Assembly (NCBI GenBank): GCA_024653575.1
Contig: JANLIJ010000068.1
Span: forward strand, 1 to 43,950
Source: Candidatus Kaiserbacteria bacterium
GTDB lineage: Bacteria > Patescibacteriota > Minisyncoccia > Phycocordibacterales > UBA918
Direction of reading: 5' to 3'
Length of the DNA: 43,950 bases
Part shown: piece after piece, positions 3,434-16,290 of the stretch
Numbering within the stretch: position 1 is the first letter of the stretch
Layout: the number at the start of each line of letters is the position of its first letter
Notes under the pieces: model-generated
The model's database searches: none
What the model was told of the DNA's origin: nothing
Seen by the model: only the letters and a program-made list of their open reading frames with translations
Translations under genes and position numbers: made by a program

Positions 3434-3467
3434 TTCCACTACTCCTCCAGAACATGGGCCAACCCAG

Positions 3468-3496
3468 ACAATAGTTCTAAAATCATCTCATGTCAA
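3468..3496 (-). promoter_or_regulatory. sigma70-like promoter for 2900..3433
   Basis: Minus strand reads TTGACA, 17 nt, TATTGT, about 30 nt upstream of the SD. Confidence 0.45.
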
Positions 3497-3647
3497 CAGG
3501 CTACACCTTATCGGTGCATGATACAATAATCGAAATTACTTGAACGAATTGTATATGAAAATGAGAAGGGCGTGCGAGATATAAAGACTATCTTCTGCAA
3601 ATACTGAAAGGTTGGATAGAATTTATTTTTACTAATAATTTTGATAC

Positions 3648-4361
3648 ATGAATAATGAATCGGGGAAAAGTCACGGACAAAGCTCTCTGAAATATTCTGA
3701 CGGGCTTGTTGATAATTACACGAATACTCGAGAACGCTTCAACGAAACTGATAGTATACTTTTTTCAAAAATACATCGAGAGGGTGGCGTGATGGGGAAG
3801 CGGGTACTTGACCTTGGTTGTGGAGACGGTTCTCATGCAATAGTGCTAAAAGAAATGGGCGCTTGTGAAGTCTTTGGCATTGATATCAATGAAGCAATGC
3901 TAAGAAGGGCGAATCAAAAATTAGATGGAGTTGAGGGAGTCTCACTTATCCTTGCAAATGGGGCAAGCCTACCGTTTCAGAATGATTCCTTTGATTTTAT
4001 CATTTCAAATTATGTAATTCAGTATTTTAAAGACGTGACAAAAGTTTTTGCTGAAATCGGAAGAGTGCTTAACTCTGGCGGAACGTTCATTGGAACAATA
4101 AACGTCATTGAAGTAGAAGCCGGGTACGAAAACCTACACAATACAGAAATACCTATTCGCTTGGGCAGTACTGCCTCGCCGGTCATTGTACGTTTTTTTG
4201 TTAAGTCAGTTGATGAAATTTCCATGGCTATTGAAAATTCTGGACTTACAGTTGTCGAAGAAGAAGAAATGACGCATCCAAACTCAGTTATCGATGAGTC
4301 ATACCCACACCATACGCATGTCAAAAAACATGCAATGATCTATACATTAAGAAAAATCTAA
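3648..4361 (+). CDS. class I SAM-dependent methyltransferase
   Basis: Motif I VLDLGCGDGSHA and a post-I acidic residue (FGIDIN); Methyltransf_11-like layout. Confidence 0.8.
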   Translation: MNNESGKSHGQSSLKYSDGLVDNYTNTRERFNETDSILFSKIHREGGVMGKRVLDLGCGDGSHAIVLKEMGACEVFGIDINEAMLRRANQKLDGVEGVSLILANGASLPFQNDSFDFIISNYVIQYFKDVTKVFAEIGRVLNSGGTFIGTINVIEVEAGYENLHNTEIPIRLGSTASPVIVRFFVKSVDEISMAIENSGLTVVEEEEMTHPNSVIDESYPHHTHVKKHAMIYTLRKI

Positions 4362-9098: not shown

Positions 9099-9866
9099 AT
9101 GTTTGAAAAATTTCTTGAAGAAATAGGCCTTTCTGAAAAAGAGGCAAAAATATATCTCGCACTTCTTCAGGTTGATAGCGATTCAATCCATGACATCGCC
9201 ACCAAAACAAAAATCAATCGCACGACAGTGTATCCTGTTCTTGAGTCTCTAGGAAAAAAAGGTCTCGTGAGTGAAACTCAAGATGGCAAAAAAACGCTTT
9301 ACCAAGCAGCCGCTCCAGAACGGCTTGAAACCTATATGGAGCGGCAGAAAGTAGTGCTTCAAGAACAATCTGCCCGTCTTAAAGACATAATCCCGCAAAT
9401 CAAAAGTATCCAAAGAGAACAAGGTGAAAGACCAATAATAAAATACTTTGATGGTCGTGACGGAGCCATTTCAGCATATGAAGAGTTTTATAGCTTTGAT
9501 CCAAAGAAAAATGAAACTGGTTACTTTATATATAACAGAGATCTTGTGAGCGAAACATTCACTGAGGAAGAGAGAAAGAAATTTTTAACAATTCGCTATA
9601 CCAAAACGGTAATTCCCAACTCAATATACACAAACAAAGATGGTAAAATGGAATTTACTACACCTGGTATACGGACTAGAATTGACAGTGGCGAAAAATA
9701 TCCAATTTTAGCTGATATTACTATTATTGAAGATAGGATTATTGCGGTAACACTCGGAAACGTCATATCATCTGTTCTAATCAAAAGCAAAGACCTCGCA
9801 GTAACGCTAAGCTCTCTTGTGCGCTATATTAACGATACATCAAAAAATGAAAAGGGCGGGAAGTAA
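9099..9866 (+). CDS. TrmB-family transcriptional regulator (paralogue of 145..930)
   Basis: GLSEKEAKIYLALLQVDSDSIHDIATKTKINRTTVYPVLESLGKKGLV, with a C-terminal domain collinear with the first copy. Confidence 0.8.
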   Translation: MFEKFLEEIGLSEKEAKIYLALLQVDSDSIHDIATKTKINRTTVYPVLESLGKKGLVSETQDGKKTLYQAAAPERLETYMERQKVVLQEQSARLKDIIPQIKSIQREQGERPIIKYFDGRDGAISAYEEFYSFDPKKNETGYFIYNRDLVSETFTEEERKKFLTIRYTKTVIPNSIYTNKDGKMEFTTPGIRTRIDSGEKYPILADITIIEDRIIAVTLGNVISSVLIKSKDLAVTLSSLVRYINDTSKNEKGGK

Positions 9867-9888
9867 TCAAACTTCCCGCCCCTGTTTT
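9854..9888. terminator. bidirectional terminator overlapping the stop codon of 9099..9866
   Basis: GGGCGGGAAGTaatcaaACTTCCCGCCC, with T-runs on both strands (ctgtttt on plus; ttttcatttttt on minus). Confidence 0.75.
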
Positions 9889-10137
9889 GCCATGTTTCAC
9901 ATAAACGTTTTGTTATGCGTCAATGCTGAAACTACACAAGTCGCGTTCGCGCGAACTGATGAACCACTAGGAATCACCCACGATTTTCACTCCTTACTTA
10001 AGAACAAATGCGCATGATGCGCCCTTCACTCACTCTAATTTAAACTCCACAGGGTCGTTTTAGTCCTTCTTTTCCAAGCAAAGCTTGGAAAAGAAGGGTT
10101 AGAAGTCGCCCATGACGTTCTCCTTAAAGATGAACTT
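9889..10137 (-). ncRNA. candidate leftward non-coding transcript of about 250 nt with two 4-codon mini-ORFs
   Basis: Bounded by the minus-strand promoter at 10144..10171 and the terminator at 9854..9888. The only reading frames with a strong SD are the mini-ORFs: AAGGAG-n6-ATGGGCGACTTCTAA (10099..10113) and AAGGAG-n8-GTGGGTGATTCCTAG (9967..9981). Confidence 0.45.
10065..10097. repeat. 15-bp perfect hairpin (CCTTCTTTTCCAAGC aaa GCTTGGAAAAGAAGG)
   Basis: Read directly from the sequence. On the minus strand it starts 1 nt after the stop codon of mini-ORF 1. Confidence 0.8.
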
Positions 10138-10143
10138 ATTGCT

Positions 10144-10171
10144 AGTATATCAGGTTCTTTTATTGTGTCAA
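10144..10171 (-). promoter_or_regulatory. near-consensus sigma70 promoter (leftward)
   Basis: Minus strand reads aatattgcTTGACA, 16 nt, TATACT. Confidence 0.6.
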
Positions 10172-10306
10172 GCAATATTAACTACATATGTCAACTTTGT
10201 GAACGAATTAATGTTATTTTGTTAGTATAAATAGTCTATTTTAATAGGCTATTTTCTTTATTTATCAACGTTTTTGTGAATAATTGACTTTTCTTGTCAA
10301 TATTGC

Positions 10307-10334
10307 TTGACAAGATTTTAAATAGGAGTATAAT
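10307..10334 (+). promoter_or_regulatory. consensus sigma70 promoter (rightward)
   Basis: aatattgcTTGACA, 16 nt, TATAAT. An 8-bp inverted repeat (CTTGTCAA/TTGACAAG) overlaps the -35 element. Confidence 0.65.
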
Positions 10335-10340
10335 ACCCGT

Positions 10341-11109
10341 GTCAGGTTAGAAAAACATTTGGTTGCCACCGTAAGGGCACAAGACCAAATATTCACTGGC
10401 TATAAATTAAGTTTTCTAAGATGTATCGGTTGCCGAGCATATCGACAGCCGAATACATCCCAGAAAATGAGTTCTTTGAAAAAATGCGGACTTTCCGCAG
10501 CTGCGCCTCGGGTACTGGGGTAGGGGACTGTTATGCTCGTACAGAAAAATGGCCGTTGGTACTACTACTCCTGGACAACTGGGTATGTGGCTATCAAGCC
10601 TCCACGTAAGTGAGGCGGTGCAGTAGACGTTGGAGGTGTGTTACGTAGCAACAGAACCCTCCCGTTTGTCCCCGTTCGTTATATGGAGAGTCCAAGGGAA
10701 GCAGAACCCTCCGGTATAGACTCCGAGACAAAAGTCACAAAATGGTGAGTGAGTGCATTCCGCACGCTCACCACCTTTATCAGGTTCATCACTCAGTGGT
10801 GAGTCTGTAGAGATTTGTTCTTTGCAAGATGAAGATACGCCCACAGTACTGTGTTTGCATATATCACTATGTCATCACAGTACTGTGGGTGTTTGGAGAG
10901 AACGCACATAGGTAACCCGTATCGGACGGTCGCTTTGCCAAGAGCGAATGCCGATTAATGCGGTGGTGACATGGTCACGGTTGGACGGCTGGTTTGTCTA
11001 ACCAAACTACCTTCGCGAGGGTAGTGGGCATCAAAGTATCGATGCAGTCCCTTTGGCGGGGACATCTCTCTGGGGAAAGGTGGTAATTCCGCCCCTTTCC
11101 CCTTCTGTC
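10341..11109 (+). ncRNA. candidate large structured non-coding RNA or processed leader (about 770 nt), 3' end defined by hammerhead cleavage
   Basis: Lies downstream of the consensus promoter. No convincing ORF. Many perfect helices, for example 10840-10853/10876-10889 (14 bp) and 11072-11080/11094-11102 (9 bp). Family not recognised. Confidence 0.5.
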
Positions 11110-11157
11110 CACGAGTGTGTACTCGTGCTGATGAGCTCGAAAGAGCGAAACAGATGG
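11101..11157 (+). ncRNA. hammerhead ribozyme, type III topology
   Basis: CCUUCUG-UC|CACGAGUguguACUCGUG-CUGAUGA-GCUCgaaaGAGC-GAAA-CAGAUGG. All invariant core nucleotides are present, all three helices are correctly placed, and there is a GUC cleavage triplet. Confidence 0.9.
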
Positions 11158-11177
11158 TCTTTGAATATTTTTCTTGG

Positions 11178-11220
11178 TTGGTGGAATCAGTTTGTACACA
11201 GTACTGATTGATTCCACCAA
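11178..11220 (+). promoter_or_regulatory. strong hairpin immediately 5' of the RBS of 11234..11596
   Basis: TTGGTGGAATCAGT (11178-11191) pairs with 11207-11220 (about 14 bp including one G-U). SD GAGGAG at 11222. Confidence 0.6.
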
Positions 11221-11233
11221 CGAGGAGAAAAAA

Positions 11234-11596
11234 ATGAAAAACTGGCTCAAAGGTTTTGGTATCGGGTTACTCATGATTATTGTTGCGTTCGTGACTGCTT
11301 TTGTCGCGGACCTCACGGTAATCGTGCAGACTGGGGACCAGGTACCGCTGTATCATCTTTTCGTGATACTTCTGGTAACTTGGTTTTGCGAAGTGATTGT
11401 CCTCATTCCGTACGGATCAATACCACGCAAAGTCACATGGGATGCCTTTTTGGCACGAAGTGTATTTGTGTGGTTGCCTGTCGGTGCGGGATGGTACCTC
11501 GCTCACAACGTGTCGGCCTCTGCATTTTTGGTGGGACTCATAATCTCGTCAACTTGTGTGGGGTACAACATCGTGGTGACCAACGTCGAGAGATAG
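11234..11596 (+). CDS. small integral membrane protein (about 4 TM), unknown function
   Basis: SD gaggag 6 nt upstream of the ATG. 120 aa with four hydrophobic spans. ORF track 11174..11596. Confidence 0.6.
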   Translation: MKNWLKGFGIGLLMIIVAFVTAFVADLTVIVQTGDQVPLYHLFVILLVTWFCEVIVLIPYGSIPRKVTWDAFLARSVFVWLPVGAGWYLAHNVSASAFLVGLIISSTCVGYNIVVTNVER

Positions 11597-11678
11597 TAGT
11601 TCGACGATAAACCTCTCCGCGATTCTCTTCCGCGTGTAGATGAGAAAGGTTTTGTGATACACCTTAAAAAGGCCACAT

Positions 11679-11699: not shown

Positions 11700-11803
11700 T
11701 CTTCATACACTTTTTGGAGTTTCGGAGATTGTTAGAGATTACGTTCTTTGAATACCGCGAATTCCTTCGCACCGCGCCTCGGGTACTGGGGTAGGAGACC
11801 GTC

Positions 11804-12097: not shown

Positions 12098-12168
12098 ACT
12101 TTATACAGTTTCTAAATAGTTTGGAGATTGTTAGAGAACTGTTCTTTCATCACACAAAGGAGACTCAT

Positions 12169-14686: not shown

Positions 14687-14962
14687 TTAGTTATAGATAT
14701 CATGGGTGCCAATCGCAAGAAAGGCGACGGTATTTTTGTCTTCCCAAGAAAAGACAATCCGGTGGGAATACGTGACGGAGAAGCTGTAACAACCCTTCAG
14801 TACTCCCGTGAGTTTATGAACACGAAGTCTTTCATGGTTTGCCTCATTTTTAAAAAGTTCCATTTTCTCTCGTGCTTCCACTTGGATTTTCTTTTCGAGT
14901 TTTTTAAACTCGCGTAGAAATGATGGTTTATATACGATGGTTATATCTCGCATATCACTCAT
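14687..14962 (-). CDS. type II toxin, RelE/ParE superfamily
   Basis: 91 aa. FLREFKKL...KLTG.LKGCYSF.V.YSHRIVF pattern. 4-nt ATGA overlap with the upstream antitoxin gene. Confidence 0.75.
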   Translation of the reverse strand: MSDMRDITIVYKPSFLREFKKLEKKIQVEAREKMELFKNEANHERLRVHKLTGVLKGCYSFSVTYSHRIVFSWEDKNTVAFLAIGTHDIYN

Positions 14963-15162
14963 ATGGATTTTAATAGGTCATCAAGATTGCCTGAAAGAGA
15001 TGGCTCCTTCATAGCACGGAGAACTTTTTGAACCGCAATGTCTTCGTTGTAATGCTTGAGTGCATTGCGCACCACCGCTGCACGACTTGCACCAGTCTCC
15101 TCAGCCACTTCAGCGAGGCGCTTTTCAAGCTCTGGGGTGAGGGGAACAGATATAGTAGACAT
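14959..15162 (-). CDS. ribbon-helix-helix (CopG-like) antitoxin
   Basis: MSTISVPLTPELEKRLAEVAEETGASRAAVVRNALKHY is an RHH fold signature. Start at the internal Met. Confidence 0.75.
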   Translation of the reverse strand: MSTISVPLTPELEKRLAEVAEETGASRAAVVRNALKHYNEDIAVQKVLRAMKEPSLSGNLDDLLKSI

Positions 15163-15180
15163 AATATATGTATGATAACT

Positions 15181-15214
15181 TAGTATGATAATATCATATG
15201 ATATTATCATACTA
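15181..15214. promoter_or_regulatory. 34-nt perfect palindrome, probable TA operator
   Basis: TAGTATGATAATATCAT|ATGATATTATCATACTA, 19 nt upstream of the antitoxin start. Confidence 0.6.
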
Positions 15215-15263
15215 ATTGCAAGGAGATTAAAAACGGGCGTGGCCGAAGGACACACCAGTTTTT

Positions 15264-16190
15264 CTACCCCCTCGAATGAAACTTCTTGTGAATATCTCTG
15301 AGGTGTTTGTCGGTGACGTGGGTGTATATTTGCGTCGTTGCAATGTTGGCGTGGCCGAGGAGCGCCTGCACGGAACGAAGGTCAGCGCCGTTACTCAAGA
15401 GGTCGGTAGCGAAGCAATGTCGGAGTTTGTGGGGAGTGACTTTACGCGTGATGCCTGAGATTGTTGCATACCGCTTGATGATGCGTTGTACGCTACGGGG
15501 AGTGAGGCGGAGGTCGATGTTTTTTTCATCATTATGCTTTGCATTTTTTCCATACTGAATGAACATTGCATCATCAAAGTCTTTTCGCTCCTTGAGGTAC
15601 GCCTTAATAGCATCTCGTGCGGTGTCTGAAAGAAACACTACACGGACTTTGTCACCCTTCCCTCGAATTGAAAATTCGTCACGAGTAAGATCAACGTCCT
15701 CCTGAGAAAGGGAACAGAGTTCTGAGACACGGAGGCCAGTCGAGAAGAGGAGTTCGAGAATTGCGCGGTCTCGAAGACCACTCAGTGTATTGGAATCAGG
15801 TGCCTCGATGAGACGCGTGAGCTCGGCAGGGGAGATGAGGTCAAGTGAACGCTCGGGAACCTTCGCAAGTTCAATGCGCTCGGGGTTGAGCGACTCTATA
15901 CCACGCTTGCGAAGATATTTAAGGAAGGCACGAAGCGCGATGAGGTAATAGTTCTGTGTTTTGCGCTTCAGTGTCTCCACATTTCGACCAACTTTTGTTC
16001 CTTGTTGCCGATTGAGCCAGAGGCGGTACTCACGTACCTGTGTTTCAGTAACATCCTTTGGGCCGTCTACCTTTGCATACTCTAAAAAGCGAGTGAGGTA
16101 GTGATCGTAGTTCCTGACAGTGAGAATACTGCGCCCCTTTTCAATTTCGAGGTATTCAAGAAACTCACGTTTTAGTTCTTTGAGCGTCAT
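15264..16190 (-). CDS. xerC: tyrosine recombinase, XerC/XerD-like
   Basis: N-terminal SAM-like core-binding domain. Catalytic residues R...HKLRHCFAT...LLGH...TQIYTHV. Confidence 0.85.
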   Translation of the reverse strand: MTLKELKREFLEYLEIEKGRSILTVRNYDHYLTRFLEYAKVDGPKDVTETQVREYRLWLNRQQGTKVGRNVETLKRKTQNYYLIALRAFLKYLRKRGIESLNPERIELAKVPERSLDLISPAELTRLIEAPDSNTLSGLRDRAILELLFSTGLRVSELCSLSQEDVDLTRDEFSIRGKGDKVRVVFLSDTARDAIKAYLKERKDFDDAMFIQYGKNAKHNDEKNIDLRLTPRSVQRIIKRYATISGITRKVTPHKLRHCFATDLLSNGADLRSVQALLGHANIATTQIYTHVTDKHLRDIHKKFHSRG

Positions 16191-16290
16191 ACCTATATAT
16201 AGTACACGAGAAGTGTCGCAAAATATTGCTTCATTCCACACCAATATCCTAAAATGTAAAAGCCCGAAAGCGGTGGGCTTTTACGGGCTT

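Follow-up and report, generated by a model that had tools for sequence, protein, structure and literature searches.

The hammerhead locus

The DNA analysed here (the window) is a stretch of 43,950 nt, contig JANLIJ010000068.1, from a metagenome-assembled genome (MAG) labelled Candidatus Kaiserbacteria. On its plus strand, a type III hammerhead ribozyme separates an untranslated-looking upstream RNA from the mRNA that encodes a small membrane protein, as had been described in the original prediction, which was made from the letters of the window. The host had been called similar to bacteria of the candidate phyla radiation (CPR), in agreement with the label of the MAG, and the closest relatives of the locus are from Candidatus Lloydbacteria, which is also the source of the best named relative of the 120-aa membrane protein. 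The features of the locus are listed in Table 1, where L-numbers (L001, L005 and so on) denote related contigs or loci fetched from other genomes.

Table 1. Features of the hammerhead locus and of related loci. Positions are those of the window unless a locus is named. ORF, open reading frame; RBS, ribosome-binding site; MFE, minimum free energy.
Feature	Position	Strand	Details or basis
TrmB-family regulator gene	9099-9866		Conserved neighbour of the membrane gene in relatives
Sigma-70-type promoter	10307-10334	+	TTGACA-16 nt-TATAAT (12/12); sequence match
Micro-ORF, 26 aa	10533-10613	+	MLVQKNGRWYYYSWTTGYVAIKPPRK; RBS context GGGUACUGGGGUAGGGGACUGUU before it
Segment conserved with L005 1523-1608	10648-10731	+	blastn, 76% identity over 88 nt
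Recurrent intercistronic motif	10774-10824	+	Irregular hairpin, then UGUAGAGAUUUGUUCUUUG
Perfect 14-bp hairpin	10840-10889	+	CCCACAGUACUGUG ... CACAGUACUGUGGG
Multi-hairpin domain, no ORF	10895-11071	+	Closed by GGAGAGA (10895-10901) and UCUCUCU (11065-11071); MFE fold
Stable hairpin	11072-11102	+	GGGGAAAGG.GGU ... CCGCCCCUUUCCCC; directly 5' of the hammerhead
Type III hammerhead ribozyme	11101-11157	+	Core, covariance model, shuffles, RF00008 register, covariation in homologues
Stem III	11101-11108 with 11150-11157	+	5' arm CCUUCUG (11101-11107), U11108; 3' arm CAGAUGG (11151-11157)
C17 (C11109)	11109/11110	+	Predicted cleavage between 11109 and 11110
Stem I, 7 bp	11110-11116 with 11121-11127	+	CACGAGU/ACUCGUG; loop GUGU
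Core C3-A9	11128-11134	+	CUGAUGA
Stem II, 4 bp	11135-11138 with 11143-11146	+	GCUC/GAGC; loop GAAA
G12 A13 A14	11147-11149	+	Followed by A15.1 at 11150 (GAAA, 11147-11150)
Long hairpin, 45 nt	11177-11221	+	GUUGGUGGAAUCAGU ... ACUGAUUGAUUCCACCAAC; between hammerhead and Shine-Dalgarno sequence
Shine-Dalgarno sequence	11222-11227	+	GAGGAG; sequence
Gene for 120-aa protein	11234-11596	+	Four-helix membrane protein by eye; no Pfam/PHROG family; 7 relatives
Small post-stop hairpin motif	11609-11639	+	AAACCUCUCCGCG-N-CGCGUGUAG; after the membrane gene
ParE-like toxin, RHH antitoxin, tyrosine recombinase	14687-16244	-	Recombinase with Phage_integrase and SAM-like N-terminal domains
Post-stop hairpin copies	L001 3763-3793, 4369-4399		
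Post-stop hairpin copies	L005 3363-3394, 3820-3851, 4369-4400		
Post-stop hairpin copies	L165 2169-2199, 3226-3256		
Post-stop hairpin copies	L054		Two copies
Large RNA	L001 2270-3037	+	nhmmer
Large RNA	L005 1688-2591	+	nhmmer
Large RNA	L100 480-1215	+	nhmmer
Large RNA	L017 3290-4079	+	nhmmer
Large RNA	L073 3981-4830	-	nhmmer
Large RNA	L101 1132-1985	-	nhmmer
Large RNA	L068 530-1250	+	nhmmer

The region between the TrmB gene and the membrane gene (9867-11233) contains just a few small conserved ORFs and no ORF of 80 aa or longer except a spurious-looking one on the minus strand (10975-11316). Its perfect sigma-70-type promoter is the only promoter-like site on the plus strand between the two genes; no other was found on that strand between 10334 and 11234. 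Counterparts occupy the same relative place in L001 (2142-2169), L005 (about 1087-1115) and L165 (about 1573-1600). The transcript containing the hammerhead would therefore begin near 10341, about 770 nt upstream of the cleavage site, matching the length of upstream RNA first proposed. Downstream, the long hairpin, the Shine-Dalgarno (SD) sequence and the ATG at 11234 are present as had been stated. In the window, the extended base of this hairpin also takes up part of the SD by pairing. The hairpin is conserved in sequence in Lloydbacteria-like relatives, and the same long hairpin follows hammerheads in L001 (twice), L005, L007, L165 and L168. The product of the downstream gene looks like a four-helix membrane protein, judging from its amino acid sequence; an exact-sequence look-up returned no record of it.

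The plus strand of the hammerhead reads CCUUCUG-U-C/CACGAGU-GUGU-ACUCGUG-CUGAUGA-GCUC-GAAA-GAGC-GAAA-CAGAUGG (the slash marks the predicted cleavage site), and its letters, core and helix order are all those of the complete type III hammerhead first described. The invariant core is intact, with both CUGAUGA and GAA in place, an A11150-U11108 pair and C11109 as H17, and the core columns are invariant or near-invariant across 88 homologues. Stems I and II are perfectly paired, and stem III consists of A15.1-U16.1 and four more pairs, a U-U mismatch and then two C-G pairs. The MFE fold of the isolated 71 nt (11095-11165) is a three-way junction with the helix order of type III. Alignments to the Rfam model RF00008 and to R1, a covariance model based on 88 hammerheads from other genomes and not on the window, are both in the type III register. 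We conclude that 11101-11157 encodes a genuine type III hammerhead.

That the match to the consensus arose by chance has next to no probability. The combination CUGAUGA...GAAA alone is expected 1.35 times per window; this figure, and the lack of an Rfam match at the gathering threshold, are what could be said for chance. A loose type III pattern (stems of at least 4, 3 and 3 bp) gave 0.12 matches per dinucleotide-shuffled window. However, stems as good as the 7, 4 and 5 bp of the window element occurred in 0 of 2000 dinucleotide shuffles of the window, R1 scored the element at 77.7 bits (E=2.5e-21), and relatives have a hammerhead at the orthologous position (see below). Together these all but rule chance out, and the first judgement that a chance origin is very unlikely holds. 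With filters off, the next R1 match in the window reached 10.6 bits, and no second or degenerate hammerhead was found in the 43,950 nt.

At the gathering threshold, no Rfam match was found in the whole window, nor on L001, L005 or L007. Whole-window and 1.2-kb Rfam scans contained no hammerhead in the correct register, the sole hammerhead match of an evalue-mode scan of the 1.2 kb being a misregistered Hammerhead_HH9 (20.5 bits). When the 65-nt stretch 11096-11160 was used alone, RF00008 (Hammerhead_3) matched in the correct register with 37.8 bits (E=1.4e-7), short of the gathering threshold of 48.5 bits. In the original prediction, a score below that threshold had been named as an outcome that would refute it, and formally this is the outcome obtained. 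We nevertheless judge it to be real, as the comparative evidence is much stronger than the Rfam shortfall. Hammerheads in relatives score 32-43.5 bits against RF00008, and the low score arises because, compared with this lineage, stem I of the model is too short and its stem II loop too long. The gathering cut-off is too strict for this lineage, and the shortfall is a limit of RF00008, not evidence against the fold. It is also why standard annotation misses the ribozyme of the window.

Hammerheads in relatives and across the CPR

The seven relatives found for the membrane protein are from Lloydbacteria- and Kaiserbacteria-like CPR genomes, and their contigs share the layout of TrmB gene, long gap and membrane gene. 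Searches with R1 (filters off) placed a hammerhead directly 5' of the membrane gene in L001 (68.9 bits), L165 (62.6 bits), L167/L168 (64 bits) and L005 (63.3 bits despite a C10.1/A11.1 mismatch). That of L007, which has a different loop I and a long stem II, scored 28.2 bits. The position is thus kept across lineages with membrane proteins that are just 55-67% identical. Stem I varies yet pairs (CACGAGU/ACUCGUG, UCGGGAU/AUUCCGA, UACAGAU/AUCUGUA, GUGCGAU/AUCGCAC and UCYAGAU/AUCUGGA). There are two hammerheads in the operon of L001 and five in that of L005 (cores at 1658, 2611, 2946, 3882 and 4431, numbered 1 to 5 here), lying between cistrons or RNA units. Numbers 4 and 5 of L005 flank the membrane gene and have an identical upstream flank of at least 40 nt.

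Two of the relatives bear on how the ribozyme and the gene belong together. In L166, the membrane gene has its own promoter (TTGACA-17-TATTAT) and no hammerhead. This is a natural contrast, in that the ribozyme is present where the membrane gene is embedded in a longer transcript. The closest relative, L167/L168, encodes a membrane protein 99% identical to that of the window and is about 97% identical from about 11095 on, while the sequence upstream of this point is unrelated. The break identifies the ribozyme plus the gene as the conserved unit, with a recombination breakpoint at the 5' edge of the ribozyme, and suggests that cassettes may be exchanged by recombination at or near the hammerhead.

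Homologues of the ribozyme were collected using the pattern TGTGTAYNNNNNCTGAYGAGN{10,12}CGAAACAG, in which pairing is not demanded. Matches were obtained in at least 119 stretches of species-representative genomes and in 34 viral contigs. The rarity implied by the original prediction was wrong, and the subtype is very common in CPR genomes. Among the matches listed, CPR lineages account for 81 of the 94 named genome matches (about 86%) and include Saccharibacteria, Paceibacterota/Parcubacteria, Kaiser-, Nomura-, Giovannoni-, Taylor-, Kerfeld- and Peregrinibacteria, and Minisyncoccia. The other 13 named matches listed lie outside the CPR, and two of these are in archaeal MAGs, of which one is DPANN (Pacearchaeota). 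A finder that requires stems detected 268 hammerheads in all fetched loci plus the window, missing just two of the pattern-derived loci, and 250 remained after a quality filter and the removal of duplicate loci.

In the alignment of 88 distinct homologues (A2), stems I and II are each 99.7% paired, and double changes occur at six of the seven pairs of stem I and at three of the four of stem II. The inner four pairs of stem III (5'-CUGU-3'/5'-ACAG-3', from A15.1-U16.1 outward) are 98-100% paired, three of them with double changes; the outer pairs are variable in the family, for which an inner 4-5 bp is the norm. The covariation score was 0.619, compared with 0.07-0.13 for slid controls, and exceeded that of all 500 shuffles. 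The hammerhead helices thus carry compensatory changes in the homologues. A caveat is that the 88 sequences were gathered with a core-plus-loop pattern and the stem-requiring finder. The pattern itself left the stems free, and the finder missed just two of its loci. It did prescribe the core, loop I and part of stem III, and the invariance of these is therefore partly due to ascertainment.

The 250 non-redundant hammerheads lie a median of 54 nt after an ORF on the same strand and 76 nt before the next, and both neighbours are co-oriented for 103 of 162 hammerheads. The proteins encoded downstream are mostly small (median 105 aa) and without a Pfam or PHROG family. Few of 140 match anything, and the families seen are scattered (DUF2201, response-regulator, SSB, DUF932, DUF3150, HNH and sigma-factor). 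A literature search found no published report of hammerheads in CPR/Patescibacteria. This abundant, CPR-enriched subfamily, which resembles the hammerhead of the satellite RNA of tobacco ringspot virus (sTRSV), is apparently so far unreported.

Marine contigs (the JGI metagenome contigs L008, L010 and L011, and L009 from TARA) also contain hammerheads of this loop I subtype, in which stem II has 5 bp. In L008, L010 and L011, a further type III hammerhead, unlike the first, lies about 353 nt from it.

The upstream RNA and the proposed role of the hammerhead

The RNA upstream of the cleavage site (about 10341-11109) had been described as a long non-coding transcript. It does look untranslated, yet a conserved ORF of 26 aa lies within it, as does a structured module toward its 3' end. 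The micro-ORF has a counterpart in L005 (1388-1471), with 64% identity over 25 aa (tblastn, 1394-1468, E=7e-8), and 7 of 16 identical residues use different synonymous codons (third position, by eye). Its product is rich in W and Y, and the RBS context is conserved. On these sequence features, we take the micro-ORF to be a genuine small gene; neither it, the membrane protein nor an 86-aa Cys-rich ORF has a family in Pfam or PHROG. In L005, the counterpart of the conserved segment that follows runs up to hammerhead 1.

Further elements of the upstream RNA recur elsewhere. The recurrent intercistronic motif, which consists of ..CUCUUUAUCAAG, a hairpin and UGUAGAGAUUUGUUCUUUG, was found by regular expression in L060 (twice), L113, L068, L165 (twice), L168 and the window, and also in L007 (1-90). 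Further sites in the window are at about 11715-11750 and about 12100-12150. In relatives, it occupies the place that the hammerhead has in other copies and is followed by GUUCUUUGAAUA and the long hairpin. No Rfam match was obtained for this motif, which occurs in several CPR lineages and could be a leaky terminator, an RNase or processing site, or another self-cleaving motif. The perfect 14-bp hairpin, for which Rfam gave miRNA-like hairpins alone, corresponds to the long hairpin found in relatives after hammerheads or the recurrent motif. Alignment A4, which covers four lineages, contains 16 covarying pairs. The closing helix and layout of the multi-hairpin domain are common to L007, L005 unit 3 and L054, with the proviso that this is an uncertain alignment of four sequences. 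This domain is a candidate structured RNA module, as modelled by its MFE fold, with a 3' end that would be made by the hammerhead. The structured module as a whole (10840-11102, about 270 nt) has positional counterparts in L007, L005 and L054. However, nhmmer did not link 10890-11109 of the window to L005 unit 3 or the L054 module, and what they share is architecture and short motifs alone. A group I or II intron, RNase P, tmRNA, GOLLD, ROOL and HEARO were rejected for the upstream RNA, which gave no Rfam match to any of these and no tRNA or tmRNA.

The stop codons of successive cistrons are immediately followed by a small hairpin motif (AAACCYCYYCGCC-N8-12-GGCGUGUAG), which in the window comes after the membrane gene and in L005 stands right before hammerheads 4 and 5. 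Farther downstream in the window are small orphan ORFs, a NUDIX gene, threonine synthase, ParE/RHH, a tyrosine recombinase, a NYN-domain gene and PNPase. While the window itself encodes PNPase, RNase Y is encoded in the locus of one relative. Pfam and PHROG searches found no recognisable phage genes at the locus, and a prophage context was rejected, no phage families being recognised around the hammerhead. The first statement that no phage genes are nearby is broadly true but overlooks the ParE/RHH pair and the tyrosine recombinase, which lie 3.1-4.7 kb downstream of the membrane gene and 3.5-5.1 kb from the hammerhead. They mark either an accessory island or simply XerC/D. In L005, a 103-aa STIV_B116-like protein (3451-3762; PF08960; phrog_5063, E=5e-17) is encoded between hammerheads 3 and 4 and is the only virus-linked family seen in these loci.

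On the minus strand (10171->9852), a near-perfect promoter (TTGACA-16-TATACT with TG, 10171->10144) faces a terminator (9883->9852). These signals predict a divergent RNA of about 290 nt that would lie between the hammerhead operon and the TrmB gene, with a strong SD, a mini-ORF encoding MGDF (10113->10099, stop codon included) and then a hairpin (10065-10097). Similar mini-ORFs, encoding MGDHITM, MGDGS and MGGDS, each followed by a stop codon, lie at the same place in L005 and L001 (by eye).

We consider it probable (about 0.8) that 11101-11157 is an active, sTRSV-like type III hammerhead that serves as a punctuation mark in the transcript. RNA polymerase would start at the promoter at 10307-10334 and read through to the membrane gene, which has no promoter of its own. 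The emerging hammerhead would then fold and cleave itself co-transcriptionally after C11109, with the ends expected from established hammerhead chemistry. The upstream product of about 770 nt would carry the micro-ORF, the structured 3' module, the hairpin at 11072-11102, which would cap its 3' end, and UCUGUC (11104-11109) with a 2',3'-cyclic phosphate. The downstream product would have a 5'-OH at C11110, followed by the two compact hammerhead hairpins, the long hairpin, the SD and the ATG. Both halves would gain independent, defined and protected ends, and their stability and translation would be uncoupled. This reading builds on a motif that is shown here to be complete and non-random, kept at its site in relatives, covarying in its helices and placed between cistrons with no second promoter, and the L166 contrast, the structured upstream flanks of the family and the clustered bacterial hammerheads of the literature also speak for it. 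Cleavage itself, the chemistry of the ends and their effects are inferred.

A reading that overlaps with this one, and differs from it solely in which product matters, is that the hammerhead mainly makes the exact 3' end of the upstream RNA, either of the module at 10840-11102 or of the whole, and that the membrane mRNA is a by-product. The 70 nt upstream of family hammerheads are much more structured than the downstream flank (-20.4 kcal/mol versus -12.6 for shuffles upstream, and a weaker excess of -12.1 versus -8.3 kcal/mol over the 70 nt downstream), and hammerheads in relatives bound ORF-less structured RNAs at one or both ends (L005 unit 3, L054, L007, and an RNA of about 700-950 nt at seven loci). 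However, L167/L168 keep the hammerhead and the gene with an unrelated sequence upstream of about 11095, which means that conservation of the ribozyme does not extend to the particular RNA upstream of it in the window. In addition, nhmmer gave no link of 10890-11109 to L005 or L054, and the shared architecture comes from four sequences. We regard this reading as doubtful, though well worth keeping in mind.

Several points weigh against punctuation by an active hammerhead, in addition to the RF00008 score. Stem III of the window is short, with five pairs before the U-U mismatch, and its two outermost C-G pairs overlap the 3' arm of the hairpin at 11072-11102 and compete with it. The MFE fold of 206 nt keeps stems I and II and swaps the short stem III for a local alternative. 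Hammerheads have been gained and lost in the operon family, with L166 lacking one and number 4 of L005 mismatched at C10.1/A11.1, so a given copy may be dispensable. In the window itself, the hairpin motif at 11609-11639 is kept and the hammerhead expected after the membrane gene is absent, which suggests loss of a ribozyme. Finally, the stabilising or insulating benefit is something that we infer.

The overlap of outer stem III with the upstream hairpin and the loss of stem III from the 206-nt fold would also suit conditional cleavage, with that hairpin or the alternative pairing gating the folding to form a switch for the membrane protein. The same holds for the downstream hairpin, which partly sequesters the SD in the window, and for the TrmB-family regulator as a conserved neighbour. 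However, no ligand-binding or sensor element is evident, a stem III core of 4-5 bp is normal for the family, such hammerheads are normally constitutive, and sequestration of the SD is apparently not conserved in L001 or L168 (by eye). A switch is therefore improbable. Even less credit is given to the view that the motif is the leftover of a repeated cassette, intact but without present function. Copies have been duplicated with their flanks, as for numbers 4 and 5 of L005, and copies have been lost, both after the membrane gene of the window and in L166. Against this stand a core in which every base is intact, perfect stems I and II, a position that has outlasted considerable divergence of the membrane proteins, and stems that covary rather than decay.

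In several CPR lineages, type III hammerheads adjoin or enclose a large structured RNA without ORFs, whose conserved core of about 600 nt sits in units of 700-950 nt. RNAalifold gave 97 pairs for its seven loci, 65 of them with compensatory double changes. Invariant blocks include UGGAGAG..CGAUAG, GCCAA, UGGAAAGU, a CGCAAG hairpin, UCAUGCRUGAA-helix-GAAUYGCAAUAAG and GGUCAAA. There was no match in Rfam 15 at E<0.5, the conserved-block pattern was absent from viral contigs, and nhmmer did not find this RNA in the window. It is a candidate for a new class of large non-coding RNA. ORF-less units also lie between near-identical type III hammerheads in L005 (2593-2926), L054 (2520-2246, minus strand) and L100 (427-1216). 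To judge from these sequences, the ends of such a unit could, after double cleavage, re-form a hammerhead and be ligated to a circle.

Punctuation of operons by hammerheads has already been described, so the window element is not of a new kind, and the more novel material is in the related loci, with their hammerhead-bounded structured RNAs and the large RNA. It is possible, and we propose it tentatively, that these loci belong to a CPR-wide RNA cassette system, in which hammerheads dice long transcripts into mRNAs for tiny orphan proteins and ORF-less structured RNAs, including the class of about 700-950 nt. Units with two hammerheads would perhaps be circularised, and recombination at the ribozyme would shuffle the cassettes and so account for the breakpoint at about 11095 that sets the window apart from L167/L168. 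CPR/Patescibacteria contain one sTRSV-like subtype in abundance, and such tiny genomes are unlikely to keep these elements without use. The window offers a simple conserved module (pre-hairpin, hammerhead, post-hairpin, SD, gene) and leads to the hammerhead-bounded structured RNAs of relatives, including a large covarying RNA absent from Rfam. The contrast with L166, which has a promoter of its own and no ribozyme, makes punctuation or insulation directly testable.

Comparison with known systems

The hammerhead of the sTRSV plus strand has the sequence (CUG)UC/ACCGGA-UGUGCUU-UCCGGU-CUGAUGA-GUCC-GUGA-GGAC-GAAAC (PMC9519601), and its type III structure includes loop-loop tertiary contacts (PMC6155905). 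The consensus of the CPR family is CUGUC/nnnnGA-UGUGUA-UCnnnn-CUGAUGA-GUCC-AAAA-GGAC-GAAACAG. The window element is identical to that of sTRSV (RF00008, GenBank accession number M14879) in the core CUGAUGA...GAAA, the GUC triplet and the CUGU/ACAG of stem III. Both have a stem I of 6-7 bp with a loop starting UGUG (ACCGGA-UGUGCUU-UCCGGU in sTRSV and CACGAG-UGUGUA-CUCGUG in the window, aligned by eye) and a 4-bp stem II with a purine-rich tetraloop (GUCC-GUGA-GGAC in sTRSV, GUCC-AAAA-GGAC in the family and GCUC-GAAA-GAGC in the window). Loop I (U-GUGU-A) and loop II (RAAA) are near-invariant in the family, without covariation, and are like UGUGCUU and GUGA of sTRSV, an analogy that would fit a similar contact between loops I and II. 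Unlike the circular satellite RNA, the window hammerhead is in a bacterial chromosome and its loop I has 4-6 nt rather than 7. As there is a single copy, no unit-length circle would be produced.

For clustered bacterial hammerheads, cleavage of polycistronic RNAs has been observed both in vitro and in E. coli, and they have been proposed to process long transcripts into gene-length mRNAs (Perreault et al. 2011, PMC3088659). Circularisation of the products of tandem hammerheads was raised in the same study, with no product detected (PMC3088659). Bacterial hammerheads that flank small unannotated ORFs have been described (PMC3088659; de la Pena et al. 2017, PMC6155905), and the purpose of hammerheads in bacteria is regarded as unsettled (PMC6155905). 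The CPR loci resemble these clustered prokaryotic and prophage hammerheads in their intergenic, co-oriented sites, in having several copies per operon and in the small orphan ORFs. The window has its one copy between the promoter at 10307 and the gene at 11234, and relatives have 2-5 copies. The window differs in its CPR host and in the lack of recognisable phage genes at the locus, and some of the units between hammerheads in CPR relatives are ORF-less structured RNAs, not genes.

Retrozymes and other genome-encoded units flanked by hammerheads give circular RNAs. Among the relatives, L005, L054 and L100 are alike in having units of 330-950 nt between two near-identical type III hammerheads, and excision would leave 5'-OH and 2',3'-cyclic phosphate ends able to re-form the hammerhead. 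No reverse transcriptase, target-site duplications or evidence of circles was found. The window has one hammerhead (R1, filters off), so no hammerhead-bounded circular unit can form there.

The RiboJ-type insulators, reportedly the work of Lou et al. in Nat Biotechnol in 2012, are said to place the sTRSV hammerhead and a hairpin before the RBS. The order of parts in the window is the same, namely an sTRSV-like hammerhead, a hairpin, an SD and a start codon. The layout of RiboJ fixes the 5' end of the mRNA independently of upstream transcription, and the window element would insulate the membrane gene in a similar way. In contrast to RiboJ, the arrangement in the window is natural, and its hairpin is much longer (45 nt), conserved in sequence and partly paired with the SD.

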